Shown: one piece after another, positions 1 to 15,188 of the stretch
Numbering within the stretch: position 1 is the stretch's first letter
How the letters are laid out: each line of letters begins with the position of its first letter
From: a virus
Taxonomy: Duplodnaviria; Heunggongvirae; Uroviricota; Caudoviricetes
Virus record (IMG/VR): IMGVR_UViG_2526164613_000015
DNA: 18,446 nucleotides
Reading direction: 5' to 3' (one strand)
Program-made: the position numbers and the translations under genes
Notes under the pieces: generated by a model
What the model saw: only the letters and a program-made list of their open reading frames with translations
Told to the model about the DNA's origin: nothing
Databases searched by the model: none

Positions 1-423
1 ATACGCATCAGTAACCTCTTTTACCCGAGCACGCCGGTTGCAAAGGCGTGATCAAGAAAACGAAAAATTAAATCAACCTGGGAACCATGCTTTTCTTCGA
101 ACGCCAGCGGATCCGCATGAAGCTCGTTGTGATGCTCCCGACACAGCGGTAGCGTGAAAATATCGTGGGATTTTGTTCCCATTCCGCCCTGACCATGACC
201 AATCAGATGATGAGGATCGTCCGCTGGCTACCACAACACGAACACGGCTGTGTCTTTACCCAGCGTGTGTATTTCTCATTTACCCAGCGGCGACGTTTAG
301 GTCGTTTCATGAAGGATTCCGGAGACTCCGGATCAACGGCAATGCTGACCACCGTCTTTTCCTGTGGTGGGTTCTGTTGCTGGTGGGCGTGAGGCAGCGG
401 CGCAAGATTTTTTGTGCGCTGTT

Positions 424-1068
424 TCAGTATGCTGGTGGCGGTCTGCTCTCCCGGTACGATGTCGCTTTCGCGGTACACCGAGCAGATTTTTCCGCTGGTA
501 ATCCCAGCGAGCGACGTAATACCGCTTCCGGTAGCGCGTCCGCCAGCTGATTGCGGACCGCCCACCAGGATAATTCAGCCAGAGATAATTCACGCTCCTG
601 CGTACCGCTTATTGCGTGACCGATGACGTCAATCATCCATGCTGACAGGTTTTGATGAGCAAGTTGCTCGAGTGATTCGGATGTCTGGTCACGCAGCTGG
701 TTGTCGCAGAGCCAGCACAACACCATTGCGCCGGTACCATAACGGTGAATAACGGTTTCACTGTGATGATAGTCACCATGAGGCCACTGGCAGGATTTGA
801 CATGACGCAACAGCCAGTCAGACAGTGCACCAGCGCCACCAACAGCACGAATCACACGCTCATTGCTGAAAAACGGCAGTAATGATTTATCCTCCACCAG
901 CGGCTGGCGAACAGTGGGAACCGCTCCGGATGGCAGCGCCCGCATGTTTTTCGGTTCCGGCTCAACCAGCACCCTGCTGTGATGAAAAACCGGCAGTGAT
1001 TCGCGCCCGGGCTTAAGGACCACCAGCCCGAGTTCCGGTACCAGAACCGGTCGAAGTAATACCCGCAC
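424..1068 (-). CDS. hypothetical prophage protein (214 aa, GTG start); possibly a fragment of a frameshifted larger gene
   Basis: ORF with E. coli-like codon usage; start overlaps the stop of the upstream ORF 1070..1348 in another frame; further overlapping minus-strand ORFs at 203..593 suggest frame disruption. No family recognised. Confidence 0.4.
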   Translation of the reverse strand: MRVLLRPVLVPELGLVVLKPGRESLPVFHHSRVLVEPEPKNMRALPSGAVPTVRQPLVEDKSLLPFFSNERVIRAVGGAGALSDWLLRHVKSCQWPHGDYHHSETVIHRYGTGAMVLCWLCDNQLRDQTSESLEQLAHQNLSAWMIDVIGHAISGTQERELSLAELSWWAVRNQLADALPEAVLRRSLGLPAEKSARCTAKATSYRESRPPPAY

Positions 1069-1069
1069 G

Positions 1070-1348
1070 TTACCTCCAGATGCGTTGCTGGAATGTGCGG
1101 GACGGACGCGGTGGGCGCTCGGAGTACGGCAGCCTGACGTAGATTATCCAGTGACGATAATCGAGGCTGAGGGCTTTCCTAAACTCATACCCACGTCTGC
1201 GGTAGTTCTGAATCAGCCATTCGGCCTGTTCTTCAGTGCATGGGGCGTGCCGGAACCAGTCAGATTTGAATGCATGAGAACGCCGCCCGTGCCTGCTGGC
1301 AAAGACGGCTGAATTATCAGAATTGTGTAGTCTGGAATTTTGCGCCAT
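1070..1348 (-). CDS. hypothetical protein (92 aa), possibly N-terminal piece of a disrupted gene continuing in 424..1068
   Basis: ORF ends 1 nt before the GTG start of 424..1068; no recognisable motifs. Confidence 0.3.
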   Translation of the reverse strand: MAQNSRLHNSDNSAVFASRHGRRSHAFKSDWFRHAPCTEEQAEWLIQNYRRRGYEFRKALSLDYRHWIIYVRLPYSERPPRPSRTFQQRIWR

Positions 1349-1417
1349 CGGCTTTCTCCGGTGGCACAGTGTTACTCAACAGGGGTTCAGCCCTGCGCTG
1401 AATTGTAGATGAATTCA

Positions 1418-1675
1418 CTAATCTTCAAAAGCAGAAAAACCAGCCTTAATCCCAGCTTCTTTCAGAGACGGCAACGATGTGACAAATTCATTTTCACGCA
1501 AAATAAAACCATCCGTCACAAGTCCATCCACAAAGTAAATTAACGCAGCTCCACTCTTCCTATGTAGAGACTGTAAACATTTAATACGGCAGTGGCTGAC
1601 AATAGCGCCATTCTCAACGCGCACAGTATAGAGGCCATCTTCACTAAAAATTTCACGTAATTCTTCGATTTTCAT
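1418..1675 (-). CDS. small hypothetical prophage protein (85 aa); occupies the position that rem holds next to hokD in E. coli K-12 Qin
   Basis: ATG at 1675..1673 preceded by GGAAGGA Shine-Dalgarno 8 nt upstream; ORF-track version (1418..1723) likely over-extended. Synteny argument only. Confidence 0.5.
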   Translation of the reverse strand: MKIEELREIFSEDGLYTVRVENGAIVSHCRIKCLQSLHRKSGAALIYFVDGLVTDGFILRENEFVTSLPSLKEAGIKAGFSAFED

Positions 1676-1800
1676 CAACAGAATCCTTCCAGATAAATAG
1701 CACTCCCCCTGTTCGGGGTCCATCCCTCTTCTCCCTGCGCGCTACTTAAGTATTTTTGATTCTATTCTGGCACCGTCCAAAACTTCAAACACGTTGAAAA

Positions 1801-1827
1801 TAAAAACAAAAAACCCGCCGAAGCGGG
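1801..1827 (-). terminator. rho-independent terminator downstream of the HTH-ImmA gene
   Basis: Minus strand reads CCCGC-TTCG-GCGGG followed by TTTTTTGTTTTT; hairpin 1814..1827. Same hairpin sequence recurs at 3649..3662. Confidence 0.6.
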
Positions 1828-1832
1828 TATAC

Positions 1833-2939
1833 TCAAACAATCTGGAAAATATTTCTTGGATTTGTAATAGGTCTGTTGATGGAGAACAACTCACGAATTA
1901 AATCTTGGCTCAAGCCAGTTTTCATAAGAATTCTTAGCCAGGTTGCATCATCCAGCATTTCAATCGCCTCGGCCAGCATGCCGGGTTCTTCAGGGCGCAA
2001 AAGTTCATCACCAGGTTCAACTCTCGTATACCCTCTGGAATTAAGATGCATATAGCCAGTTCTTGCCTGTTCCTGGGTCAATAAGCCTAATGCGCTGGCT
2101 CGATAAATACACATTTTAAGGCTGATTTTCCATCTAAGTTTAAATTCAACCAGAGCATTCCAGTCGAATTGCTTACCTCGTATTCGTGGAAATTCTTTAA
2201 TGAAAGATAACCTGGGAACTAATAAGGCGCTCGAAAAGTGATCGGCTTGTGATTCCGTAAGTTTATCACCTGTCGTTATGCCCTCATGCATTACTAAATG
2301 CCCTAATTCATGACCTAAATCAGAGCGAAATCTACATATGCTTTTTTTAACATTGTTCCTGATGATAACAGGCCTGTTATTGTGAACAGTAAAAGCATCA
2401 ACACGATCATCGACTCCCGTAACATGCGCAACGATTACCCCTAAACTCTCCGCCAATTTAACCATTGATGATATAGGGCCAAGACCTAAATTCCAGGCAC
2501 GGCGACAATCTTCTGCCACTCGCTCAATATCATTCGGAGTAAGTAATTCAGCCCCTGGGTGCTCCGGTATGTTAACGTCAGGAAATTCGATTTCACCTTC
2601 AACAGCAGAAATTATAATATTAAGAATCTCAGCCCTGGCCAATACACTATTAGTCAGCGTTTGAGTCCTGGACTTCTTACTCCGAAAATGGCAGACATCA
2701 CTTTCCAGAGCGTATTTTCGTTCAGTAAAAAGAAAACTGGACTTAATCATAAGCGCTGAAGATATTAACTCAAGACATTGCTCCGATGGCCTGCACCCCT
2801 TCTCCAGTTTGCTAACAAATTGCTTTGTCTTGCCAATTTTTTCGGCTAACTCTTCACAAGAAAGCCCAACAGCCATTCTCGCTAGTTTGAGCTTATCACC
2901 CCGATACTCAGTGAAGTTATTCACCTGATGTTCCATCAC
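1833..2939 (-). CDS. fused XRE-type HTH / ImmA-IrrE family zinc metallopeptidase (COG2856-like), 368 aa
   Basis: N-terminal HTH (LARMAVGLSCEELAEKIGKTKQFVSKLEKG); HEXXH zinc-binding motif in SDLGHELGHLVMHEG; start is GTG at 2939 or ATG at 2936; overlaps upstream ORF by about 20 nt. Confidence 0.8.
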   Translation of the reverse strand: MMEHQVNNFTEYRGDKLKLARMAVGLSCEELAEKIGKTKQFVSKLEKGCRPSEQCLELISSALMIKSSFLFTERKYALESDVCHFRSKKSRTQTLTNSVLARAEILNIIISAVEGEIEFPDVNIPEHPGAELLTPNDIERVAEDCRRAWNLGLGPISSMVKLAESLGVIVAHVTGVDDRVDAFTVHNNRPVIIRNNVKKSICRFRSDLGHELGHLVMHEGITTGDKLTESQADHFSSALLVPRLSFIKEFPRIRGKQFDWNALVEFKLRWKISLKMCIYRASALGLLTQEQARTGYMHLNSRGYTRVEPGDELLRPEEPGMLAEAIEMLDDATWLRILMKTGLSQDLIRELFSINRPITNPRNIFQIV

Positions 2940-3567
2940 TGCTCACATCCAAATCTTTATCCTTCGTACGCCGACGAAGAGGCACCTTATTAATCTCCGC
3001 TTCGTCAGGGAGTGTGTTATAATCAAGAGGCATAAGCGGCATCGATGCTGTAGATTGATGAGAAACTATACTAATCTGAGCACCATAAGTATTAAATCCA
3101 ACAAGAGCTACCTCCCAACGAGGCAGTGTGGACTCTAATTCACCATCGCCCTCTTCGGATAAAAAAGGCTCAGCTATGACTCGCCATGTAATATCTTGCT
3201 CAGCCTCAACATCACCAAACAATGAGAGCTGCTCATACTCTACTTTATTTCGACGCAGACGATGTTTCTTTTTGGGGTTATTAATGCAATCTTTGGTAAA
3301 TTGTAGCGGAACTTTATTTAAAGCAACTACATAGTCCAACCCCTTGGAAATCATCTCAAGGCCAGGAATTGCATCTTCATTTTGAATAAGATGATTTCTG
3401 ACCCAATCATAAGCCCTTACACCTTCAGACCAGTTGCTGTCTAATGCGTGCTTATGATAGTACAGCTGCTCAAGTACGTTAGCGATCTCCGCCAACAAGT
3501 GGCGAACATAGTTTTCAGCAAGATAAGGTTGAAATTCCCAACAAGGAGCTAACTGATTTTCATTCAT
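2917..3567 (-). CDS. hypothetical acidic protein (216 aa), first gene of a two-gene operon with the HTH-ImmA peptidase
   Basis: ATG at 3567; no TM segments; acidic stretches (GDVEAEQD, SEEGDGELES); stop overlaps start of 1833..2939; preceded by promoter-like sequence with perfect TTGACA. Confidence 0.6.
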   Translation of the reverse strand: MNENQLAPCWEFQPYLAENYVRHLLAEIANVLEQLYYHKHALDSNWSEGVRAYDWVRNHLIQNEDAIPGLEMISKGLDYVVALNKVPLQFTKDCINNPKKKHRLRRNKVEYEQLSLFGDVEAEQDITWRVIAEPFLSEEGDGELESTLPRWEVALVGFNTYGAQISIVSHQSTASMPLMPLDYNTLPDEAEINKVPLRRRTKDKDLDVSSDGTSGE

Positions 3568-3595
3568 TTCAAGTTTCGCTTTTTTTAGAATTCGT

Positions 3596-3631
3596 AAACC
3601 ACATATTTTCGCATTTTTCTATTTTTGTCAA
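3596..3631 (-). promoter_or_regulatory. candidate sigma70 promoter for the 216-aa / HTH-ImmA operon
   Basis: Minus-strand TTGACA at 3631..3626, AT-rich spacer, weak -10 candidates (AAATAT/AATATG) about 17-18 nt downstream; about 35-60 nt upstream of the ATG at 3567. Confidence 0.35.
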
Positions 3632-3643
3632 CCAGACTAATGC

Positions 3644-3662
3644 AAAAACCCGCCGAAGCGGG
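3644..3662 (-). terminator. rho-independent terminator, probable 3' end of the hok transcript
   Basis: Minus strand CCCGC-TTCG-GCGGG followed by TTTTT; lies about 70 nt downstream of the hok stop; identical to hairpin at 1814..1827. Confidence 0.6.
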
Positions 3663-3732
3663 TTAAGTGCGGGTGCGTTGAGGATGCCTGGCACATCAGA
3701 GGTGGCGGGAGATTACTCCCCCGCCGGGTCTC

Positions 3733-3888
3733 TTACTCCTCAGGTTCGTAAGCTGTGAAGACAGCGACCTCCGTCTGGCCGGTTCGGATTCGTACCTCGC
3801 AGAGGTCTTTCCTCGTTACCAGTGCCGTCACTATGACGGTTAAACAGATGACGATCAGGGCGATTAACATCGCCTTTTGCTGCTTCAT
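3733..3888 (-). CDS. hokD: Hok/Gef family type I toxin (51 aa), HokD/RelF-like
   Basis: Manual translation of minus strand gives MKQQKAMLIALIVICLTVIVTALVTRKDLCEVRIRTGQTEVAVFTAYEPEE, matching HokD/RelF as recalled; single TM helix plus conserved C-terminal Cys region. Below the 60-aa ORF-track cutoff. Confidence 0.85.
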   Translation of the reverse strand: MKQQKAMLIALIVICLTVIVTALVTRKDLCEVRIRTGQTEVAVFTAYEPEE

Positions 3889-4099
3889 AGCCTGCTTCTC
3901 CTTGACCTTTTGGTCCGTAAGAGGCTAATCTCTATGTGTCGCATAGATATGGCCTCAGATTAATGTTAAGCGTCTTGCAGGACGCGTAATGTTAACTGGG
4001 GCTTTTCTCTATCTGCCTTTTGGTGTTCATGCCTGAGGCAGATAGCCTCAAGCACCCGCAGCAATTCTACTTAACTCCCGTCACCTCGCCAATATAAAA

Positions 4100-4189
4100 T
4101 CAATCAGAAAGGCGATCCATAAGAACAATAGCAAGACAATAAATTGCCACTACAGCCGCAATAGCCAGCGCGCATTTGAGAACCAGCAC
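4100..4189 (-). CDS. candidate small hydrophobic peptide (29 aa)
   Basis: GTG at 4189..4187 preceded by AGGAGG at 5-nt spacing; translation MLVLKCALAIAAVVAIYCLAIVLMDRLSD is a single predicted TM helix; about 70 nt downstream of the SIR2-like gene stop. Confidence 0.3.
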   Translation of the reverse strand: MLVLKCALAIAAVVAIYCLAIVLMDRLSD

Positions 4190-4259
4190 GATAACCTCCT
4201 GTATTGGACGTACACCAGCTCTGATAAATATGAGGCTGCCTCTTTAACTTCGCATTGCG

Positions 4260-5291
4260 CTACCAATCAATAAAATCAGTGATGTTATCCAACCTAATTA
4301 CAGTAACTTCCCGTCTCAACTGGTTTTTCCAATATATCTCACGAGCGTTTTGTTCACCAGCACCGCTCCACTCAATTACTCTTAAAGGCTTAGAGGTTAG
4401 GTAAGGTCGAATAAGCAGGTTAAGGTGAATATCGAGACCAGAGTAACCAAACAATATTATTTCTTCTGATTCAAATAATGCAAACTGCAAATAATCCCAG
4501 TACGTAGAAAGAACATTAGATGCTGCTATAACTGACGGTTTTCTTTTTATATGAGTTAACACTATATGCTCACTAGGTTCATCTATGTCAAGAGTAAGTT
4601 GTGAGCGTGAAAGTTTTAAAACATTTTCATGCTGATTAATAAATAGTGGTGAACCATGCAAGTGCAAATAATAACCAAACCTACGATTGTATTTCCGTTC
4701 GAGCGCTGCAGAGGAAAATCCGTGGCTTAGCATCCCATCAACTAAAACCCCATCATACCCGTTGAATATATCATTATCTATGAATGAATTGTATAATAAT
4801 TTGTCATAGTTTAATGTCGCGATATGTGAGTGTGTGTTCTTTACAAACTCCACAAGCGCATTTTCGAATCTTTGTGGCAAACCTTTATCGTAATTATGCA
4901 ACCTGGTTGCAACTTTGTGAATATAAGTGGCGGTAATTTTGGGGAAGTTTAGTCCATCTTCAGTAAGCCAATGCACGTTCCCCTCTCCAATTTGAGCAAG
5001 AGCTTTACAATATGTGACAGCCTGGTGAAGGGTATCCAACTCATGTTCTCCTTCTGGTGGACCTTGCCGCTGAAGACAACGCTCGATAAGTTGCTTGTGG
5101 ATATCTTTTAAAAAATTGGGGCGATGCCAAATTTCTTCCAACGCTCTGTCTAAGGAGAAGTGAGCAGGATCTAAAGCCATACCGAGACCGTTGCCGAATA
5201 TTATTAATTTTCTTGCCATATAGGGGGACTCATATTGGAATAACGCTGGATAGCGTAGCGCGATACGCTTAAGTTTAGGATTAATAGACAT
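4260..5291 (-). CDS. SIR2-like (sirtuin-fold, SIR2_2/DUF4020-type) putative NADase, 343 aa, stand-alone
   Basis: Ordered motifs LIIFGNGLGMA (Gly-rich loop), ATLNYDKLL, YLHLHGS, ILFGYSGLD as in defence-associated SIR2 domains; gene and 370-bp upstream region are markedly AT-rich. Confidence 0.8.
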   Translation of the reverse strand: MSINPKLKRIALRYPALFQYESPYMARKLIIFGNGLGMALDPAHFSLDRALEEIWHRPNFLKDIHKQLIERCLQRQGPPEGEHELDTLHQAVTYCKALAQIGEGNVHWLTEDGLNFPKITATYIHKVATRLHNYDKGLPQRFENALVEFVKNTHSHIATLNYDKLLYNSFIDNDIFNGYDGVLVDGMLSHGFSSAALERKYNRRFGYYLHLHGSPLFINQHENVLKLSRSQLTLDIDEPSEHIVLTHIKRKPSVIAASNVLSTYWDYLQFALFESEEIILFGYSGLDIHLNLLIRPYLTSKPLRVIEWSGAGEQNAREIYWKNQLRREVTVIRLDNITDFIDW

Positions 5292-5659
5292 TCCGTTTGA
5301 TTACACTCGTTATTACAAACTTGCATGCAAAGAAGCCCAAGCTGTTAGGTAAACAGAGACCGCAGTGGCAAGATAATCTAGATATAGCCTATAAAATCCA
5401 ACAACAAATAGCGGCCTGTTTTCTATGACTTTTCTTTTCCCTAAATATCACTTATCTAATAAAATGCAATAATGTATTGCACAGTATTTAATGTGTATTA
5501 ATATAGATAAGTATTGGTCTTATTTGATAACAAATCCTGAGCCTCAAAATGTCTGCTTTTCACACAAAACCAACAAGTAGGCTATTTTTAGCTCTGTGCC
5601 GCGAAAATGTCAATTCATATCCGAACCAATACTCTTTAATTTCATTACCTGTGACAATT

Positions 5660-6067
5660 CTAGGCATATCCCTGATAGAACGCCAATACACGCTGCATAA
5701 CTTCGCTCTTCCGGCACTCGCGACAGATTATGTTCATACGCCTGTCGTAGCGGCGTATTTCTCCGTCGGGTAATGTCCAGATAAGGCCCGGATCAACCAC
5801 AACAGGTTTCTTCACCTTTGCCCTCGAGAGTTTTTTGCGGGCGTTTTGCCAGTCCTTACGAGCCTGTTCTGACGGGAACAACCCATAGCCAGAGTGATAT
5901 ACATCACCACTGGCAACCAGCTCTCTGGCAAGAATGCTCATCAGATATCTTGTCGCACCTGTTTTAGCTTCCAGTTGCCGTAGCGTCTCACGACCGCTCT
6001 GGCGCACGAGTTCCACCACCTGCCCTTTAATTTTTTCCCGCTCTTCTTGTGTAAAAACTTTTGCCAC
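5660..6067 (-). CDS. hypothetical prophage protein (135 aa), basic C-terminus, downstream of replication initiator
   Basis: GTG start with GGGGG Shine-Dalgarno-like element 4-5 nt upstream; 40 nt after the initiator gene stop; no family recognised. Confidence 0.5.
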   Translation of the reverse strand: MAKVFTQEEREKIKGQVVELVRQSGRETLRQLEAKTGATRYLMSILARELVASGDVYHSGYGLFPSEQARKDWQNARKKLSRAKVKKPVVVDPGLIWTLPDGEIRRYDRRMNIICRECRKSEVMQRVLAFYQGYA

Positions 6068-6107
6068 AAGTCCCCCTTAAAATTACCTCATGACCTGAAA
6101 TCAACAC

Positions 6108-7073
6108 TTATCCCCTGAAACCAGGCGGAATTTCTGTATCCGGTTCAGAAATATGATTCACACAACGCTGTATAGACGAACGCCCCAGACGGATGACCAG
6201 TTCATCCCATTTTTCACGAAGCTTTGACGGGCTCATGATGTTTTTTACCCAGAATGGATCTCGCTGTACCCGACCAAACATTTCGCAAATTTGTCTGTGG
6301 CTTCTGCCATCCAGCATCCGCATTGTGCGCACGTCATTGGCCCAGGCAGTCCAGTTAGGCTCTTTTGGTCGCATGATCTCGCCATCATCACTGGCTGCCT
6401 GTTCGTAGAGACCCACGATCCGCCCCCAGATCCACTGCGCACACGCCAAATCCTCCCTGCTACCCCACTGGCGTTTTTTCGCACTAAACACAACCGCGTC
6501 GGAGTTCCGGGTTAAAAAATCCTGTTCAGTCGTCTGCGGGTCCGGTTGCGAAGCTTCCGGACGAAAAGTGTTTTTATTCTCTGTAGTAATCTCTGTTGTA
6601 TTCTCTGTAAGATCATCAGGCCATTTTGACCCGATGACATTGGGTCGTTTTGAACCAATGGAGCGTTTCATTTTGACCTCTTCCATCGTGTCATTTTGAC
6701 CTGATGGAGCGGCGCATTTTGAACCGATGGATTCGCTCAATTTGCCACCATCTAAAAGCTCGCTCCCATAGTTGATCGTGTAGAAATTGGTCATATCGCG
6801 CTTTGATTTATTGAGCTTTTCACAACGCAAAAGCCCCAGCGTTTTCAGACTTGCAAACGCGCGCTTTAACGTTGACTCTGACCAGAATGGGAACTGTTCC
6901 AGCCATTGTTCCGTTGTGTTGTAAATCCAGCGAACACCATCACATTCCATGCCGGAATTGGTATCTCTCAACCAGTAATGCAACTGCTGCAACACAATGG
7001 CTTCATTTAAGCCAATCTTCATCGCAAGCTGTGTGTTTATAACCAGTGGGCGTTCAGCAAAAAGAAGGCTCAT
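6108..7073 (-). CDS. phage replication initiator (lambda O-like replisome organiser) with DnaT-like C-terminal domain
   Basis: N-terminal HTH-like region; central repeat-encoded linker (IGSK repeats); C-terminus ...SEPDTEIPPGFRG resembles the E. coli DnaT C-terminus as recalled. ATG at 7073 preferred over the TTG at 7127. Confidence 0.7.
   Translation of the reverse strand: MSLLFAERPLVINTQLAMKIGLNEAIVLQQLHYWLRDTNSGMECDGVRWIYNTTEQWLEQFPFWSESTLKRAFASLKTLGLLRCEKLNKSKRDMTNFYTINYGSELLDGGKLSESIGSKCAAPSGQNDTMEEVKMKRSIGSKRPNVIGSKWPDDLTENTTEITTENKNTFRPEASQPDPQTTEQDFLTRNSDAVVFSAKKRQWGSREDLACAQWIWGRIVGLYEQAASDDGEIMRPKEPNWTAWANDVRTMRMLDGRSHRQICEMFGRVQRDPFWVKNIMSPSKLREKWDELVIRLGRSSIQRCVNHISEPDTEIPPGFRG
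6581..6752. repeat. replication-origin-like iteron array inside the initiator gene
   Basis: Five to six direct repeats with core ATTTTGA(C/A)C at exact 23-bp spacing (TTTTGA at 6625, 6648, 6671, 6694, 6717, degenerate 6740), preceded by three 12-bp CTCTGT-containing repeats (6581-6615). Confidence 0.65.
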
Positions 7074-7575
7074 AATTCCATCCAGCTTTTTGTTGGTATT
7101 GCTGTCGATACGCAAGTTTGAAAGCAATTGCTTTTTCTATAAGTTCGTCAGTTTCACGATCCACTACGGCAGGATCAGCAAAAAGCAGTCCGGACTCCAC
7201 CACATCGCCATATTCTTTGTTTAACCCGGCGATCATGTACGTGATGCTTTTTCCGTCACTAATTTCACGATACAACCTGAAATCATTAATCCGGATAGCC
7301 TCCATAATTGCAGGCACTAGCGCCGTGAACTTTTCACGCTTATCCCTAGTGTCGATAGCCTTCCAGCGTTCGAATATCTTCACTCGATTAACGCCAAGCG
7401 CTCGCTGATCAACCGCGCCACCTTCATCTGTGACACGCTGAACCTCGATGTTCGGGCGCTCTTTCAAAGCCCAGAATGCTTCAGTGATTAATATCGTCGC
7501 CTGCTCCTGTGTCATTCCTGGTCGACATATCCAGGCATCCAGAGCCTCACGAGCCTGTTCAGGAGTGATTTTCAT
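7054..7575 (-). CDS. hypothetical early-region protein (173 aa) at the CII/YdaT position downstream of the cro-like gene
   Basis: ATG at 7575; overlaps the cro-like stop by 17 nt and the initiator start by about 20 nt, indicating an operon; family not securely recognised. Confidence 0.55.
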   Translation of the reverse strand: MKITPEQAREALDAWICRPGMTQEQATILITEAFWALKERPNIEVQRVTDEGGAVDQRALGVNRVKIFERWKAIDTRDKREKFTALVPAIMEAIRINDFRLYREISDGKSITYMIAGLNKEYGDVVESGLLFADPAVVDRETDELIEKAIAFKLAYRQQYQQKAGWNYEPSFC

Positions 7576-7786
7576 TGTTCAACCGCCCCGCCCGCTTCGT
7601 CTTACGATATTCGTCATAAACCTTGGGATCATACTGAAGCTCGCCGCCAGATGCCTCCTGTAGACGCATCGCGCGACCTTCAGGAACCAGCTCTTGCCAT
7701 TGAGAAACAGCAGATGGGTCAACGCCAGCAGCTTTCGCTACTTTAGCTTTCGTACCGTAAAAATTAATTACGTCTGATTTAAACAT
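7559..7786 (-). CDS. dicC: Cro-like regulator, DicC/YdaS-like (75 aa)
   Basis: ATG at 7786 with GGAGG 4 nt upstream; sequence ...VPEGRAMRLQEASGGELQYDPKVYDEYRKTKRAG resembles DicC as recalled; divergent from the repressor gene. Confidence 0.7.
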   Translation of the reverse strand: MFKSDVINFYGTKAKVAKAAGVDPSAVSQWQELVPEGRAMRLQEASGGELQYDPKVYDEYRKTKRAGRLNNENHS

Positions 7787-7798
7787 CGCACCTCCAAT

Positions 7799-7814
7799 AT
7801 TGAGTTTTCTCAAT
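7799..7814. promoter_or_regulatory. candidate operator in the dicA/dicC-like divergent promoter region
   Basis: Perfect palindrome ATTGAG-TTTT-CTCAAT, with CTCAAGGAATCTCAAG half-site repeats at 7822-7837, in the 77-bp intergenic region. Confidence 0.45.
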
Positions 7815-7863
7815 GCTAATCACTCAAGGAATCTCAAGCCAAGGGTTATTAAGATATCTAAAT

Positions 7864-8271
7864 ATGAACGAGAAAACTTTAGGTCAACGCATTAGAGAAA
7901 GACGTAAGCAGGTAGGCTTAAGTCAAAACGGTTTAAGCAAAGCTGCTGGCGTATCTGGCTCATCAATTTCATTATGGGAAAGTGACCATACAGCCCCGCG
8001 CGGGCAAAATTTGCATCGCCTCGCCGAGGTATTGCAATGTTCACCAACCTGGATACTGTTTGGCGACGAGGACAAAACACCAGCTCCCCCTGTTTCACTC
8101 GATAGTGCCTTAGACTTATCGGAAGATGAGTTAGAGATGTTGCGTTTGTATCGCGCACTTCCTAAATCAGAGCAACAAGCACAACTCAGCGAACTCCGCG
8201 CCCGCGTTGAGAATTTTAATCGCCTGTTCACCGAGCTATTAGAGGCTCGCAAACGCAACAAGCATCAATAA
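7864..8271 (+). CDS. dicA: CI-type prophage repressor, DicA-like XRE HTH protein (135 aa)
   Basis: HTH LGQRIRERRKQVGLSQNGLSKAAGVSGSSISLWES; motifs VLQCSPTWILFGDEDK and RARVENFNRLF resemble DicA as recalled; ATG at 7864 gives DicA-like length (ORF track starts at 7813). Confidence 0.8.
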   Translation: MNEKTLGQRIRERRKQVGLSQNGLSKAAGVSGSSISLWESDHTAPRGQNLHRLAEVLQCSPTWILFGDEDKTPAPPVSLDSALDLSEDELEMLRLYRALPKSEQQAQLSELRARVENFNRLFTELLEARKRNKHQ

Positions 8272-8463
8272 TCATCCCTTCACAAAATTTTAAAGCCTTA
8301 CATTTCAATGTATTGGCTTTATCTTGCGTCAATACTTGAGTTTTATCATCAAAAAACCTTAACGAAAAACAATGAGAAAACTAAATTACCTCCATCAAGA
8401 CACCGCACGGTGTTCTCAGCAAACAGTTCCGCTACCCCGGCGTTAAGGGGAAATGAGGTCAAC

Positions 8464-8616
8464 ATGGATACTATCGATCTTGGCAACAACGAATCTCTGG
8501 TATGCGGCGTGTTTCCCAACCAAGACGGCACGTTCACCGCGATGACGTATACCAAAAGCAAAACGTTTAAAACCGAATCTGGCGCGCGTCGCTGGTTAGC
8601 AAGAAACTCTGACTAA
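8464..8616 (+). CDS. ydfA: small protein (50 aa), YdfA-like first gene of the dicB operon
   Basis: ATG at 8464 with GAGG 5 nt upstream; ...TAMTYTKSKTFKTESGARRWLARNSD; position downstream of dicA-like gene matches K-12 ydfA. Confidence 0.5.
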   Translation: MDTIDLGNNESLVCGVFPNQDGTFTAMTYTKSKTFKTESGARRWLARNSD

Positions 8617-8729
8617 TGAAATCTGGTAATTAAGGAATCCTCCACGGGGGGGAGTGGTGCACACGCGCCGGACACAAGCAAGCATCCGGCATGCTCTTTA
8701 ACAATCTGGATATCCATAACAGTAAAAAT

Positions 8730-9221
8730 CTACAGATTGCCGTTCAGTTTTCTGGCCAACTCTTCAAGAGATGGAGGCGATACGTAATCCGGATTTTTAT
8801 TCATAAGAAACTGATTTTCACAGTACAGGCACCTGCTTTTATGAAAAAATTCACATTCTCTAACCGGGAATAGCTGAAGTATCGATACTATCTTTTGTCC
8901 AAAACATTTTGGACAAAGATGCATGATTATGCTGCCGCCGTTCACGGTTACCTCCTTCGAGTACACAAAAGTTCCCGACTCAAGTTGGCTAAGGATATAA
9001 CCTTCCGTCTGAGCCTCAAAGTTTTCAAATTCTGCAATTTTAGCTTTGAGAGAAGCATTTATTTCTTGATAAGTGCCCACCAGCTCAACGAGAGACACGC
9101 ATTCGCGCTGAATAGATGCAAGCTTTGAGTTCAGTTCACCAATAGCCGCATTTACTTCAGCTTGAGTTTTTGCCTCGTTCATTAGTTTTGCAATCTGGGC
9201 GGTTTCACGAATAGCCGTCAT
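8730..9221 (-). CDS. hypothetical coiled-coil plus C4 zinc-ribbon protein (about 163 aa), antisense within the dicB-operon interval
   Basis: Predicted N-terminal helical/coiled-coil region and C-terminal CPKC...CLYC pair; start uncertain (ATG 9221 preferred; ORF track extends to 9479 through a repeat-rich region); convergent with dicA/ydfA. Confidence 0.45.
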   Translation of the reverse strand: MTAIRETAQIAKLMNEAKTQAEVNAAIGELNSKLASIQRECVSLVELVGTYQEINASLKAKIAEFENFEAQTEGYILSQLESGTFVYSKEVTVNGGSIIMHLCPKCFGQKIVSILQLFPVRECEFFHKSRCLYCENQFLMNKNPDYVSPPSLEELARKLNGNL

Positions 9222-9559
9222 TGCTGCCGTTAATTCAGCGATCACATTCAATACTCTTATTGTTGTTGGGAATATCCAGATTAACAAGATCCTTGTTGTT
9301 GGGGAATAACGGGGACCACCTCGCCTGACGTGGTAAAAAGCAGGCACACAACACGAAAGCACACGGCGAGGTTGCTGGTTCATAGATAGCCTATCGTTAA
9401 ATTTTCGTCGACCGTGCGCTTCCGGTTGTGGCAATCCGCGAAATGGCGCGGCGGTAAGTATGGCTGGGGTTTCCTCCATTGCTCCAGAAAATGCACCGGG
9501 TTGTCAGGTTGACCATACGCTTAAGTGACAACCCCGCTACAACGCCCTCTGTTATCAAT

Positions 9560-9612
9560 TTTCTGGTGACATTTGGCGGTATCAGTTTTACTCCGTGACT
9601 GCTCTGCCGCCC
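9560..9612 (+). ncRNA. dicF: DicF-like small RNA
   Basis: TTTCTGGTGACATTTGGCGGTATCAGTTTTACTCCGTGACTGCTCTGCCGCCC followed by TTTTT matches K-12 DicF as recalled with about one mismatch; lies immediately upstream of the dicB-like gene. Confidence 0.65.
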
Positions 9613-9786
9613 TTTTTAAAGTGAATTTTGTGATGCGGTGAATGCGGCTAAGCGCACGCGGAACAGTTAAAACCAAAAACAGTGTTATGGGTGGATTCTC
9701 TGTATCCGGCGTTAATTGTTAACTGGTTAACGTCACCTGGAGGCACCAGGCACTGCATCACAAAATTCATTGTTGAGGACGCGATA

Positions 9787-9975
9787 ATGGAAACGTTATT
9801 ACCAAACGTTAATACGTCTGAAGGTTGTTTTGATATTGGTGTTCTGCTCAGTAATAAAGCGTTTACTGAGGATGCCATTAATATGCGGAAATATGAGCCT
9901 TATCTGCTCAATGATAATTCCATACTTTCCCGAATTGCTCTTCTTGAACTTGGTATTTTCGGAGAACAGCAGTGA
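9787..9975 (+). CDS. dicB: DicB-like cell-division inhibitor (62 aa)
   Basis: METLLPNVNTSEGCFDIGVLLSNKAFTEDAINMRK... closely resembles the DicB N-terminus as recalled; GAGGA Shine-Dalgarno 7 nt upstream of the ATG. Confidence 0.75.
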   Translation: METLLPNVNTSEGCFDIGVLLSNKAFTEDAINMRKYEPYLLNDNSILSRIALLELGIFGEQQ

Positions 9976-10160
9976 CCTCAGCATTTGCACTGGTGATGAC
10001 CGTTTTTCTTATAACGGGTGAGCCGCAGAATGTAATTACCGGAATTTATGACAGTAAGTCATCCTGCATTCAGGTAAGGGACGAACAAAAAATCCCCGGT
10101 GAATGCCTCCCGTTAAAAAAAGTGTCGCTGAACCTGAATAACGAAATACCGGCTGGATAA
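9972..10160 (+). CDS. ydfD: YdfD-like small protein with N-terminal hydrophobic segment (62 aa)
   Basis: GTG start overlapping the dicB stop (GTGA), GGAGA Shine-Dalgarno 6 nt upstream; N-terminal TM-like segment AFALVMTVFLI; synteny with K-12 ydfD. Confidence 0.55.
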   Translation: MTSAFALVMTVFLITGEPQNVITGIYDSKSSCIQVRDEQKIPGECLPLKKVSLNLNNEIPAG

Positions 10161-10252
10161 CCCTCCAGCCATATTAACGCCATACCAACGGATTAAAAAT
10201 ACCAGCAATGGCAGGAATTTGTTCATCCTTAAAATGGTTATGAGGTTTATCA

Positions 10253-12670
10253 ATGAACGCTGATAAAGAAGAAATTGCACTATATTACGAAGCCAAAAAT
10301 GACAAAGTCAGAAAACGCCTTGGGATTAAAGGTGGTTTTTACTGGCGCACAGCAAAAAAATTATCGGTTGCAATATCACGCGGTGTTGCTGCAATGGACG
10401 ATGCCGGATTTGACGAAGAGGATTTTAAAAAACCCATCCGCGTCCATTTACCCGTTGTGAATGACCTTCCACCGGAAGGTGTGTTTGATACTGAATTCTG
10501 CAACCGATACGAAAAAGGCGGAGAAGATGGTATCACAATGATACTTATCGCGCCCTCTGTTCCGGACAAACCAGCCAGTACTGACAATACCAACGTCAAC
10601 GGCGAAGACATGGCTAAGATTGAGGAGAATATGCTTCTTCCGGTTTCAGGTCAGATTCTGCCTGTTCGCTGGCTGGCGCAACACAACAGCGAAAAACCGG
10701 TCACGCACGTTTCACTGGACAAACTGCGCGCATTACATAACGCACAGGATGAAAAACTTCCCGCCGTTACCGCGCTGGCCATCTCAAATAAAGCAGTGCA
10801 ACTCGAACCGCTGGAGATTCGGGATTTGTACAAACTGGAGCGAGACACTGACAAAGTTTTCCCCGCCCCCGTAAATTCGGACCTGGGACTGATGACCTCT
10901 TTTATCGAAGCATACCTGGGCGCTGACTACACCGATCGCGGTCTGCTTACAAAAGAGTGGATGAAAGGAAATAGTGTTTCACGCATCAGCCGCACGCCAT
11001 CCGGCGCTAACGCTGGCGGCGGCATTCTTACCGATCGCGGCGAAGGTTTTGTCCACGATGATGCGTCAGTGGCGCGTGACGTAGCCACTGGCGTACTGGC
11101 CCGTTCAATGGACGTGGATATTTATAACCTTCATCCCGCACACGCTAAACGCATTGAGGAAATTATCGCTGAAAATAAACCGCCATTTACTGTGTTTTTC
11201 AGCAAATTCATCACCATGCCGGGCCACAAGGATTACTCCCGCGCCATCGTGGTTGCGTCCGTGAAAGAAGCACCAATTGGTATAGAGGCTACTCCCCACC
11301 GTGTCACCGAATACCTGAATAAGGTGCTGACTGAAACCGATCATGCCACCCCTGATCCGGAAATCGTGGATATTGCCTGTGGCCGCTCCTCTGCCCCGAT
11401 GCCGCAGCGTGTAACAAAAGAAGGAAAACAGGATGATGAAGAAAAACCGCAGCCATCTGGCGCAATGGCAGATGAACAGGCAACGACTGAAGCAGTGGAA
11501 CCGGATACAACTGAACATAATCAGGACACGCAGTCGATGGATGCTCAGCCACAGATAAATTCTGTTGATGCGAAATATCAGAAACTGCGTGCAGAACTCC
11601 ATGAAGCCAAGAAAAACATTCCACCCAAAAATCCTGTCGATGCAGATAAATTACTGGCTGCTTCTCGCGGAGAATTTGTTGAAGGGATTAGCGACCCGAA
11701 TGATCCAAAATGGGTGAAGGGGATCCAGAGTCGCGATGATGATGACCAGAATCAGGATAAAGCGGAACAAAACAGCCCAAATGCGTTACAAAACGAGCCA
11801 AAAACAAAACAACCAGAACCAGTAGTGCAACAAGAACCAGAAAAAGTTTGCACCACATGTGGTCAGACCGGTGGCGGCAACTGTCCTGACTGTAGTGCGG
11901 TGATGGGGAACGCAACCTACCAGGAAACATTCGATGAAGAGAATCAGGCTGAAGCTCAGAAAAATGATCCGGAGGAAATGGAAGGCACTGAACATCTGCA
12001 CAAGGAGAACACTGGCAGCGATCAGTATCACGCCAGCGATAATAAAACTGGCGAAACAGCAAATCCCTTAATTAAAGTGAACGGTCATCATGAAATCTCA
12101 TCCACCAGCAGGTTGTGGCACCATCTGATGATTGACCTTGAAGCAATGGGAAAAAATCCTGATGCGCCAATAAACGCTATAGCCGGTAAGTTTTTTGATC
12201 CGGCAACCGGAGATATGGGGCCAGAATTCAGCAAAACTATCGATCTGGAAACCGCAGGCGGGGTCATCGATCGGGACACCATTAAGTGGTGGCTGAAACA
12301 GTCACGCGAAGCACAATCCTCCATTCTGACCGATGAAATCCCGTTGGATGATGCACTGCTGCAATTACGGGAATTTATCGACGAAAACTCCGGTGAATTT
12401 TTTGTTCAGGTCTGGGGTAACGGTGCAACTTTCGACAACGTGATTTTACGCCGTTCATATGAACGGCAGGGGATCCCCTGCCCGTGGCGTTACACCAATG
12501 ATCGCGATGTAAGAACGATGGTTGCTCTGGGACTGGTGATGGATTTCGACGCAAGAACGACTATTCCATTCGAAGGTGAACGCCATAACGCCCTGCACGA
12601 TGCGCGTTACCAGGCAAAATACGTTTCAGCCATCTGGCAAAAACTGATCCCGAGTCAGGCTGATTTTTAA
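10253..12670 (+). CDS. RecE/YdfE-like protein (805 aa) with C-terminal DnaQ-like DEDDh 3'-5' exonuclease domain
   Basis: C-terminal Exo motifs MIDLEAMG (D-x-E), [26 protein letters not shown] (H-x4-D); central acidic low-complexity region with zinc-ribbon-like [15 protein letters not shown]; GAGG Shine-Dalgarno; sits where lambda exo / Rac recE map. Confidence 0.8.
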
Positions 12671-12684
12671 TGTTCAACCCGGAT

Positions 12685-12712
12685 CGCCGCTAACGGCATA
12701 TAGTTAGCGGCG
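12685..12712 (+). promoter_or_regulatory. perfect 10-bp stem hairpin between the exonuclease gene and xis-like gene
   Basis: CGCCGCTAAC-ggcatata-GTTAGCGGCG; no U-tract follows, so function (terminator, attenuator or processing site) is unclear. Confidence 0.4.
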
Positions 12713-12728
12713 GTTGTGAGATATAGCT

Positions 12729-12932
12729 ATGAGCAGCATATTTTTAACCGAAAATGAATTGCAAACGTTAACGGGCTGCAAATATGCAAGCCACCAGCGC
12801 AACTGGTTAATAAAAAATGGGCTTCCGTTCTATACCAATCGTAGTGGAAAACCGATCGTCAGTCGGGAACTGTTTACCTGTATAAAAACTTTACCACCAC
12901 GTGAGGCTGAACCTGATTTCGGTGCGATCTAA
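12729..12932 (+). CDS. excisionase-like small protein (67 aa) translationally coupled to the integrase
   Basis: ATG start; stop TAA overlaps the integrase ATG (TAATG); immediately upstream of int as in lambdoid xis-int modules. Confidence 0.55.
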   Translation: MSSIFLTENELQTLTGCKYASHQRNWLIKNGLPFYTNRSGKPIVSRELFTCIKTLPPREAEPDFGAI

Positions 12933-13957
12933 TGGGAAGACGAAGGAAAAATCCCGAACACGAAAAATTACCGCCAAAGGTATACCCCAATAAATATAGT
13001 TATGTATGGAAACCGACATCCAGAGAATCTGTAACCTTAACTGCAATCGAGGATGGTTTAGCCGCATTATGGAAAAAGTATGAAGAAACGGTTAACCATC
13101 GCGATCGCGCAATGACATTTGGGCGTTTGTGGGAAAAATTTCTCGCCAGCGCCTATTACAGCGAGCTTAGTCCTAGAACTCAAAAAGATTATCTGCAACA
13201 TCAAAAAAAGTTGCTGGCCGTATTCGGTAAGGTGCTGGCCGATTCTGTAAAACCAGAGCACATCAGACGATACATGGACAAAAGAGGCGAGCAGAGTAAA
13301 ACGCAGGCAAACCATGAAAAAAGCAGTATGTCGCGCGTTTATAGTTGGGGGTATGAACGAGGGTATGTAAAGGCTAATCCTTGTGCCGGTGTAAGTAAAT
13401 TCAAGGCAAAAAACCGAGAGCGCTATGTGACTGACAAAGAATACCAGGCCGTATTAAGCGTGGCTCCTGTGCCTGTTTTTATCGCGATGGAAATTGCATA
13501 TCTGTGCGCAGCAAGGATTTCCGATGTGTTATCTCTGAAATGGGAACAGATCGGAAACGATGGGATCTTTATCCAGCAAGGTAAAACAGGAAAGAAACAG
13601 ATAAAAGCCTGGAGCCCCCGCCTGCAATCAGTTATAGAAAAAGCCAAACAACTCCCCAAGTCGGCCTATGTAATCAGCAATCAGTACGGCAACCGTTACA
13701 TGTATAAAGGATTTAATGAAATGTGGGTTGAGGCAAGAAATTTAGCAGGACAGATATCTGGGATCGCCACCGATTTTACGTTCCATGACCTTAAAGCCAA
13801 GGGGATATCAGATTACGAAGGTAGTAGCCGGGATAAACAACTTTTCTCTGGTCACAAGACCGAAGGACAGGTATTAATCTATGACAGGAAAGTGAAGATC
13901 TCACCTACACTGGATGTACCTTTACCCCAGAATATTCCAACAAAATATTCCAAGTAA
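12932..13957 (+). CDS. int: tyrosine recombinase / phage integrase (341 aa)
   Basis: C-terminal catalytic region FTFHDLKAKGISDY...SGHK...QVLIYDRK consistent with the His/Tyr box of tyrosine recombinases; 3' end lies about 50 nt from the tRNA-derived att core. Confidence 0.85.
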   Translation: MGRRRKNPEHEKLPPKVYPNKYSYVWKPTSRESVTLTAIEDGLAALWKKYEETVNHRDRAMTFGRLWEKFLASAYYSELSPRTQKDYLQHQKKLLAVFGKVLADSVKPEHIRRYMDKRGEQSKTQANHEKSSMSRVYSWGYERGYVKANPCAGVSKFKAKNRERYVTDKEYQAVLSVAPVPVFIAMEIAYLCAARISDVLSLKWEQIGNDGIFIQQGKTGKKQIKAWSPRLQSVIEKAKQLPKSAYVISNQYGNRYMYKGFNEMWVEARNLAGQISGIATDFTFHDLKAKGISDYEGSSRDKQLFSGHKTEGQVLIYDRKVKISPTLDVPLPQNIPTKYSK

Positions 13958-14465: not shown

Positions 14466-15107
14466 TTAATTTTTTAAAACGAAGTTACCTCTGTCAGGGT
14501 CAAAAGCACAATTATCTCTTCCTACAATCATTGAAACTGCGATTGACTCCCTGCTCAAAGGATGAGCCGCCCTTGTTTTAACAAGATGTATTAATGCCAT
14601 TTTATCATACAACATACAAACATTTGAATTCATTGAATTCCTCATAAATACCCCATCTTCTGGTTCACATAATGTAACAGGGCATGTTCGTAAGCTCTCT
14701 GGCACTTGCAATTGTGCATGCTCCACATTAAATGCACATACTTCAATTTTATCTAACAACTCCTCTAACTGGTAGTTAGAAAGCAAATCCATATTTTCGA
14801 GCATCTCAATTTCACGCAGTACTGTAACTTCACGGCTTGTCAAACTACCATGATTAAGTGTACGTTCAATATGTTCTATATATTGAAGGCCAATCTGGAT
14901 ATTATCATTCGATAAACCATCCTGGTTAAGACTTCCCATAAAATATCCATTTACCTGCATAGGTCGTATTGACACCATCAACTCACCCAGTCTTATTTGA
15001 GCTTCTCCACGAATAGTCTGATTACGTATCTCAGACAAGGTTTCTTGAGGAATGTCAGACAAAAAACTAACCCCAGGTAAAATATAAGGCGTTAAATCTA
15101 CAGGCAT
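14466..15107 (-). CDS. nleG: NleG family type III secreted effector (U-box E3 ubiquitin ligase), 213 aa
   Basis: MP N-terminus; conserved C-terminal U-box region CPVTL...GVFMRNS...HPLSRESI...FD...GNFV shared with three downstream paralogs; AT-rich. Confidence 0.8.
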   Translation of the reverse strand: MPVDLTPYILPGVSFLSDIPQETLSEIRNQTIRGEAQIRLGELMVSIRPMQVNGYFMGSLNQDGLSNDNIQIGLQYIEHIERTLNHGSLTSREVTVLREIEMLENMDLLSNYQLEELLDKIEVCAFNVEHAQLQVPESLRTCPVTLCEPEDGVFMRNSMNSNVCMLYDKMALIHLVKTRAAHPLSRESIAVSMIVGRDNCAFDPDRGNFVLKN

Positions 15108-15188
15108 TCCTCTCCCTCCATTTTAATAACTTAATTTTGCTTTAGTAAAAAATAAAAGTACATAAAACTATATTTATATCATTAATTA

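Follow-up and report, generated by a model that had tools for sequence, protein, structure and literature searches.

A stand-alone SIR2-family gene carried as AT-rich cargo by a Qin-like prophage of Escherichia coli O55:H7 is a candidate NAD+-depleting anti-phage effector

The 18,446-nt stretch of viral DNA analysed here (Caudoviricetes; IMG/VR record IMGVR_UViG_2526164613_000015), in the following called the window, encodes on its minus strand a SIR2-family protein of 319 amino acids (aa). The protein is almost certainly a SIR2 enzyme and very probably has no obligate partner. Its gene is a mobile one-gene unit, present here as AT-rich accessory cargo (a moron) of a prophage. The window originates from E. 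coli O55:H7 strain DEC5B (100% identity over the compared parts), and its positions 1-13957 represent the early region of a Qin-like lambdoid prophage. On balance, with chances that we put only slightly above even, we consider the protein a self-contained anti-phage effector of the abortive-infection type that depletes nicotinamide adenine dinucleotide (NAD+). A preliminary description, made from the sequence of the window, had proposed such a gene, and this overall interpretation was supported on every part that can be tested in silico, namely the lack of a fused domain, the lack of a partner and the AT-rich cargo character.

The four SIR2_2-type motifs quoted in the preliminary description are all present and could be mapped to coordinates (Table 1). 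Among 95 representatives of the family down to 30% identity, residues Y162, D163, G213, K251 and D287 are invariant, and G33-N34-G35, T159-L160-N161, H210-L211-H212, G282-Y283-G285, H289 and N291 reach a conservation of at least 90%. Variability is highest in aa 225-244, 295-304 and 325-334. H212 is presumed to be the catalytic histidine. From these motifs we predict that the NAD site is intact and that NAD+ is bound via the Gly-rich loop and the N-x-D and H-G motifs. A search with profile hidden Markov models gave a match of the protein to Pfam SIR2_2 (PF13289) with 26.1 bits against a gathering cut-off of 24.5 (E 1e-5), the alignment beginning at the ATLNYDKLL motif (aa 156-302), and 90 of the 95 representatives are matched by the same model (best E 6.4e-13). 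An AlphaFold2 model calculated from 44 homologs (predicted local distance difference test score, pLDDT, 83; predicted template modelling score, pTM, 0.83) has the SIR2 fold with its Rossmann core and helical small domain. A Foldseek search of this model against the PDB returned SIR2 proteins only, with the SIR2 subunit of E. coli SIR2-HerA as best match (E 4e-10), and 274 of the 319 residues align to a bare SIR2 domain. Comparing a profile of the 44 sequences with all PDB sequences yielded no SIR2 match but only chance matches (E 0.18), so that the homology to solved SIR2 proteins rests on Pfam and on structure. A hhalign comparison with E. coli CobB placed HLHGS on HMHG and GYSG on GTSG, but despite this co-linearity of motifs the probability was 0.4%, which is not significant. 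Residue-level equivalence to a solved sirtuin was seen only in this alignment, which is not evidence alone, and it was therefore rejected as support. The protein contains only two cysteines, C72 and C95, and no CxxC pair, and thus the Zn-binding Cys4 module of canonical deacetylases is absent.

The open reading frame (ORF) 4260..5291 on the minus strand, with an ATG start and a 343-aa translation, is present as described. The length of the product, however, had to be revised, because Met25 at 5219 is the most likely start. The RefSeq annotation WP_000101550.1 begins at this Met25, and the lengths of nearly all homologs are 319-325 aa, or 319-350 aa over the set of 795 homologs and 305 cluster representatives at 50% identity. 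In close relatives the 24 codons before Met25 include a conserved LRYPxLF. The same stretch contains an in-frame stop in Pantoea and no ATG in Klebsiella, and a stop immediately precedes the Met in Citrobacter, Serratia, Aeromonas and more distant genera. The Vibrio cholerae homolog begins 20 nt after an attC repeat, which leaves no room for 24 extra codons, and in the AlphaFold2 model these 24 residues have a pLDDT of 56-59. Due to the upstream stops, the spacing in the V. cholerae cassette, the homolog lengths and the low pLDDT we take 5219 as start and 5220-5291 as leader; the first two of these observations rule out the 343-aa reading.

The stand-alone character of the gene had been deduced from the window only, and it holds in the wider comparison. 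No fused sensor domain was found, SIR2_2 being the only domain detected in the protein, and when every sizeable ORF of the window was compared with Pfam and PADLOC, no TIR, HerA, Argonaute or STAND partner turned up. We surveyed the neighbours of the gene in 80 loci of different species whose homologs are 36-100% identical to the query. ORFs of 70 aa or more were clustered by blastp, and phmmer (E 1e-3) was used for the four genes nearest to SIR2. Across the 80 loci there was no conserved neighbour; only the SIR2 family itself was common, in 79 loci. The largest neighbour cluster is a gene of ~200 aa that overlaps the SIR2 start in 5-6 alphaproteobacteria (loci L049, L057, L060, L063 and L068) and that matches neither Pfam nor PADLOC. 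Among the 143 nearest neighbours the commonest PADLOC family, a PbeA-type helicase, and the commonest Pfam family, ResIII, were each found five times. In V. cholerae the homolog (70% identity; locus L102) is a one-gene superintegron cassette of 1112 bp which comprises only the ORF and attC, in an array of at least 15 cassettes including acetyltransferases, DUF645 and glyoxalase. The stand-alone status is thus well supported by the lack of a conserved neighbour and by the single-gene integron cassette, and the concern that homologs might always occur with a partner that is missing here was answered in the negative. A cognate antitoxin was not found either: there is no conserved adjacent ORF and none in the V. 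cholerae cassette, which leaves room for an RNA antitoxin inside the enterobacterial upstream region. Neighbours restricted to single clades (the ~200-aa gene, pncB, and an operon of HATPase_c_3 with a 249-aa protein) were rejected as a general partner.

These data also bear on the idea that the gene is an orphan or decayed remnant of a SIR2-HerA (Nezha-type) system, either inactive or reliant on a HerA encoded elsewhere. The structural matches, the best of which are SIR2 subunits of SIR2-HerA, and the weak matches to PADLOC SIR2 models would fit such an origin. However, neither in the window nor in any of the 80 loci does a HerA gene lie next to the SIR2 gene, and no other ATPase neighbour is conserved. 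The sequence identity is low, and no PDB relative was retrieved by the profile sequence search. The ratio of nonsynonymous to synonymous substitution rates (dN/dS) against homologs from other enterobacteria is 0.06-0.16, which shows strong purifying selection on the family and, together with the invariant catalytic residues, argues for an active gene, and the one-gene integron cassette has been selected and moved alone. We therefore regard a SIR2-HerA remnant as very unlikely.

The AT-richness that had been noted for the gene and its upstream region is real by computation of the guanine-cytosine (GC) content: the ORF has 38.9% and the upstream stretch 5220-5659 has 35.2%, compared with 45.1% for the whole window and 48-55% for the flanking phage genes. 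Homologs in Klebsiella, Serratia, Pantoea, Citrobacter, Aeromonas and V. cholerae have 37-41%. About 350 bp upstream (5220-5575) are conserved with an 89%-identical homolog (locus L089) that lies in an unrelated context beside TacA/GNAT toxin-antitoxin genes and IS110, while homology between the cassettes downstream stops ~20 nt past the stop codon. Therefore, the enterobacterial cassette brings its own upstream region. The part of it that lies beyond the leader (Table 1) is presumably a candidate promoter or regulatory DNA and may hold the enterobacterial promoter. Promoter and terminator scans gave only consensus-level matches, and the best -35/-10 pair (5613-5584) falls outside the conserved cassette. 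A role of the upstream region as obligatory antitoxin or regulator was rejected, since the V. cholerae cassette lacks it.

In E. coli the gene was found in 46 of 5426 complete genomes, chromosomal every time, and in two alleles with at least 99% (30 genomes) and ~89.5% (16 genomes) identity. Both alleles sit directly downstream of DUF977 in Qin-like prophages. The allele of the window is also carried, with 99.8% nucleotide identity, by a Stx2e-encoding prophage of porcine edema-disease-type strains (locus L087, E. coli K_EC180, and other swine enterotoxigenic and Shiga toxin-producing E. coli). Homologs are also frequent among bacteria of the environment, for example in Pseudomonas, Stenotrophomonas, Rhodobacteraceae and marine Vibrio. 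Most homologs are chromosomal and outside prophages, and a search of plasmids gave one distant match only, in Marinobacter.

Comparison of related prophages (loci L082 and L104-L110) confirmed that the gene occupies an accessory slot, as its description as AT-rich cargo had implied. The slot between DUF977 and hokD (3889-5659 in the window) is hypervariable; elsewhere it contains relBE (K-12), DUF4209 (PADLOC PDC-S39, E 1e-102), a SMEK-domain protein with a methyltransferase, DUF5677, an alpha/beta hydrolase (O157:H7) or QueH. The preliminary description had placed the gene where the Qin prophage of K-12 carries relBE next to hokD. This is correct for the position, hokD being the third gene there, 71 nt after relBE, but the comparison is positional only: the second E. 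coli allele is found in the order DUF977-SIR2-IS-ydfW-flxA-ydfV-relBE-hokD, and since it co-occurs with relBE, SIR2 and relBE are not alternatives. Two lineages have insertion sequences (IS) just downstream of the SIR2 gene: the swine Stx2e prophages carry IS481 there, and locus L110 carries an ISEsa1 fragment.

For the flanks, it was rightly stated that none of the listed SIR2 partners is present, but two complete modules had been overlooked. Just beyond hokD, RmrT and RmrA form a complete Rosmer defence system in a block of 42% GC. The swine Stx2e prophages carry the order DUF977-SIR2-IS481-hokD without Rosmer, and therefore SIR2 is not part of Rosmer, which as a partner was also absent from all other loci. 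The second module is hokD itself, which has an intact hok/sok leader with a short mok-like ORF that ends at the hok start; unlike in K-12 Qin, hokD and sok constitute an autonomous type I toxin-antitoxin module.

Further defence and mobile-element contexts of homologs are listed here case by case. In Citrobacter farmeri the homolog is located on an integrase island, in the order DNA methylase, SIR2, and then HamA with a ResIII/DEAD helicase (Hachiman). Type I restriction-modification genes adjoin it in several loci, a P2-type Ogr/Delta gene in Pantoea, and in Serratia it lies downstream of a 680-aa AAA_16 protein which matches the candidate PDC-M36A. In Pseudoduganella (locus L005) it is the last gene of an overlapping three-gene operon after HATPase_c_3 (650 aa) and the 249-aa protein. 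Two Vibrio variants (P0042 and P0044) possess N-terminal extensions of 190-220 aa without Pfam or PADLOC match, which are 30% identical to each other (E 8e-12), the SIR2 parts being far more conserved. This pattern of a fast-evolving added domain suggests the extension as a candidate fused sensor domain. The extensions matched none of the neighbour proteins.

The location in a cargo hotspot and the frequent, although not constant, proximity to defence and toxin-antitoxin genes favour a role in defence. For such a self-contained effector we infer NADase chemistry, a defence phenotype, a trigger and a mode of activation as follows. The SIR2 protein would be held inactive in the lysogen, and infection by another phage would switch it on, probably through a change in its oligomeric state, as in other defence SIR2 proteins. 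The activated protein would then hydrolyse NAD+, and phage replication would stop. Since a cassette of one gene has no place for an inhibitor, the enzyme must restrain itself. SIR2-HerA, ThsA, Avs5, KomC and FAM118B have all been solved as rings or filaments, and by analogy with them a change of the assembly state appears to be the most plausible switch. Due to the unusual conservation of the family, the cue would be a conserved molecule or a perturbation of the host rather than a variable phage protein. More tentatively, and with clear doubt, we speculate that the protein is the founding member of a minimal, sensor-less class of SIR2 immunity, in which 319 aa serve as sensor and as NAD+-depleting effector, self-assemble on a conserved infection cue like a bacterial counterpart of FAM118, and spread as one-gene cassette through prophage hotspots and integrons.

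Several observations weigh against a defence role. The closest solved relatives, the SIR2-HerA (Nezha) proteins, need HerA for full activity. PADLOC has no model specific for the family (best family-wide E ~1e-13), and no paper and no experiment on this SIR2 family were found in the literature. No homologs were detected in 50,697 phage records by tblastn or in the BFVD structures. The identity of 70% between the E. coli and V. cholerae proteins is unusually high for a sensor of fast-evolving phage proteins. In Klebsiella, Aeromonas and many other loci the neighbours are metabolic genes, so that the association with defence is patchy, and in Rhodobacteraceae (loci L062, L069 and L070) the gene lies 17-55 nt downstream of the nicotinate phosphoribosyltransferase gene (NAPRTase/pncB). 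Finally, the gene is co-oriented with the early-right operon of the prophage, so that expression during the phage's own lytic growth is possible.

The metabolic neighbours, the close spacing to pncB and the high conservation, which is typical of enzymes, would suit an NAD-linked housekeeping or regulatory enzyme, i.e. a deacylase, an ADP-ribosyltransferase or an enzyme of NAD turnover, which has no role in phage defence and is carried as a metabolic moron. The SIR2 superfamily does include deacylases and ADP-ribosyltransferases, and two structures of this kind (3u31 and 5a3a) were among the matches. Against the cargo-hotspot location and the recurrent defence neighbours, we consider this explanation unlikely, with perhaps one chance in a handful. 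The shared orientation of the gene with cro, the replication genes and Q, without a convincing terminator between them, points in another direction, namely to a function that serves the prophage after induction. Expressed from the early-right operon, the protein could act in takeover or counter-defence by remodelling NAD, by modifying host proteins or by destroying NAD-derived immune signals, and Qin-like prophages indeed keep the gene in the same slot with two alleles that have diverged by ~10%. However, the absence of homologs from sequenced phages and viral structure sets, the mostly chromosomal location of homologs outside prophages and the gene's own conserved upstream region make this quite improbable.

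The remaining features of the window concern the prophage and its surroundings. The early region has the order DUF968, accessory block, DUF977, replication genes, YdaT, cro/dicC-like gene, dicA-like repressor, DicF, dicB, exonuclease and integrase. Between SIR2 and hok/sok lies a hydrophobic, unannotated ORF of 29 aa (VLVLKCALAIAAVVAIYCLAIVLMDRLSD), which may be another small membrane toxin. E. coli EH2252 has an annotated homolog of it (WP_001278454.1), which likewise precedes hokD by ~250 nt, and a promoter-like site at 4071-4100 on the opposite strand is directed into the ORF. As a partner of SIR2 this ORF was rejected, since the homology between cassettes ends before it and IS elements intervene in other strains. 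At the other end of the window, three NleG-family genes form a block that is accompanied by IS2 (Table 1). The NleG genes and IS2 belong to a neighbouring prophage whose end adjoins the integrase, the NleG cluster being 9 kb away from the SIR2 gene; strain CB9615 has tRNA-Ser and mtfA after this integrase instead of the NleG block.

Table 1 Coordinates of the SIR2 gene, its motifs and surrounding features of the window, and of the V. cholerae cassette
Feature	Position	Strand	Remarks
RmrA	1833-2939	-	368 aa; HTH_3 + Peptidase_M78; PADLOC E 6e-105; 23-nt overlap with RmrT
RmrT	2917-3567	-	216 aa; PADLOC E 4.6e-25
hokD	3733-3888	-	Intact hok/sok leader
sok leader	3886-4057	-	Rfam sok RF01794, 107 bits
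29-aa ORF	4100-4189	-	GGAGG Shine-Dalgarno sequence
SIR2_2-family gene	4260..5219	-	319 codons + stop; RefSeq WP_000101550.1 'SIR2 family protein'
ILFGYSGLD, aa 279-287	4431..4457	-	G282, Y283, G285 and D287 conserved; counterpart of sirtuin GTS(L) NAD-binding strand
YLHLHGS, aa 208-214	4650..4670	-	H210 and H212 in at least 90%; G213 invariant
ATLNYDKLL, aa 158-166	4794..4820	-	N161 in at least 90%; Y162 and D163 invariant; counterpart of sirtuin TQNID motif
LIIFGNGLGMA, aa 29-39	5175..5207	-	beta1 strand (28-32 in model) + Gly-rich NAD-binding loop; G33, N34 and G35 kept in at least 90% of family
Conserved leader	5220..5291	-	Open and conserved in close relatives; broken in Pantoea, no ATG in Klebsiella
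AT-rich upstream region moving with the gene	5292..5575	-	57-93% identity in 40-nt windows vs L089
DicF small RNA	9561-9612	+	Rfam, 77 bits
dicB	9787-9975		DicF upstream, same arrangement as in K-12 Qin
Three NleG-family (DUF1076) type III secretion system effector genes, plus IS2	14466-16478 and 16763-18446	-	AT-rich block, 38.6% GC; strand is that of the first stretch
V. cholerae cassette	L102:5847-7093		VCR/attC 5847-5982 and 6959-7093; gene 6001-6960

The presence of prophage-borne effectors of the type III secretion system in the strain raises the question of whether the SIR2 protein itself is a secreted virulence effector. SliP of Campylobacter jejuni is a DUF4917 protein and a sirtuin-like deacetylase of host histones; secretion of SliP and deacetylation of host proteins by it have been reported (PMC10421069). 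It resembles the protein of the window in being small, stand-alone and sirtuin-like, and weak matches to DUF4917 (PF16263) were found in 26 of the 95 family members (best E 2.4e-7). By this reasoning the O55:H7 type III secretion system would deliver the protein, as with the nearby NleG effectors. The protein of the window, however, has no match to DUF4917 at E <=10, it lacks the Zn module, and nothing suggests secretion. Moreover, homologs are common in environmental bacteria, and the gene is located in the early/nin-type region and not in the tail-fibre-proximal loci of effectors, the NleG genes belonging to the neighbouring prophage. A SliP-like effector is thus highly improbable.

If the gene protects alone, it would be the smallest SIR2 immune module and a tractable system to study how a bare SIR2 domain stays off and then fires, also in comparison with human FAM118. 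Should it fail to protect, the gene points to an NAD-linked enzyme that is common across Proteobacteria and has yet to be characterised. In both cases the slot between DUF977 and hokD in Qin-like prophages is a cargo hotspot worth mining, and the gene exemplifies single-gene movement between genera: pathogenic E. coli carry it as a prophage moron, with Stx2e phages among the carriers, and V. cholerae has it as an integron cassette.

The SIR2 anti-phage effectors with which we compared the protein carry a trigger, be it a HerA ATPase, a TIR signal with SLOG, an Argonaute, a STAND NTPase or a large fused sensor, whereas the family described here is without any of these. Among the structures, the best matches are the SIR2 subunits of SIR2-HerA (Nezha; PDB 8w9l, 8yhx, 8j4u and 8uae), from which the protein differs by an identity of only ~15% and by its length of 319 aa in comparison to ~360-400 aa. 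When Vassallo et al. carried out a functional selection in E. coli, the SIR2 homologue that they obtained was PD-T7-2A; it has a HerA-like protein as its partner and was not among the PADLOC matches of the window protein. DSR1 and DSR2 are similar in being single-gene systems with a SIR2 domain as NAD+-depleting effector, and the DSR2 SIR2 domain was matched by Foldseek (E 3e-5). The matched chains, however, have 945-953 residues of which SIR2 is only a part, while the protein of the window is a SIR2 domain throughout. Compared with ThsA of type I Thoeris it has no SLOG/STALD domain, and the window contains no TIR (ThsB) gene. The Aga_SIR2 models of short prokaryotic Argonaute systems (SPARSA/SIR2-APAZ) match weakly and in the SIR2 core only, and neither the window nor any conserved neighbour encodes an Argonaute. 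In contrast to Avs5/SIR2-STAND, no STAND NTPase domain was found in the protein, and from the canonical sirtuin deacylases of classes I-IV and U (CobB) it is set apart by the missing Zn-binding Cys4 module.

Two further groups are closer in architecture. Vertebrate FAM118B and FAM118A are likewise stand-alone SIR2_2 proteins; they form a vertebrate-specific clade with ~15% identity and work as a FAM118A/B pair, whereas the protein of the window lies outside this clade and, in contrast to FAM118, gave no evidence of filaments. PADLOC also lists PDC-S21, a SIR2-like candidate that consists of one gene; its profile has ~336 positions, and no paper on it was found in the searchable literature. It is matched by 73 of the 95 family members (best E 1.6e-13) and by aa 26-230 of the window protein (E 8e-6). 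Judged by these profile matches, PDC-S21 is a related subfamily and not the same family. The existence of the gene is not new, because RefSeq already lists its product as a 'SIR2 family protein'; the novelty lies in the evidence for a distinct, widely mobile and partner-less SIR2 subfamily.

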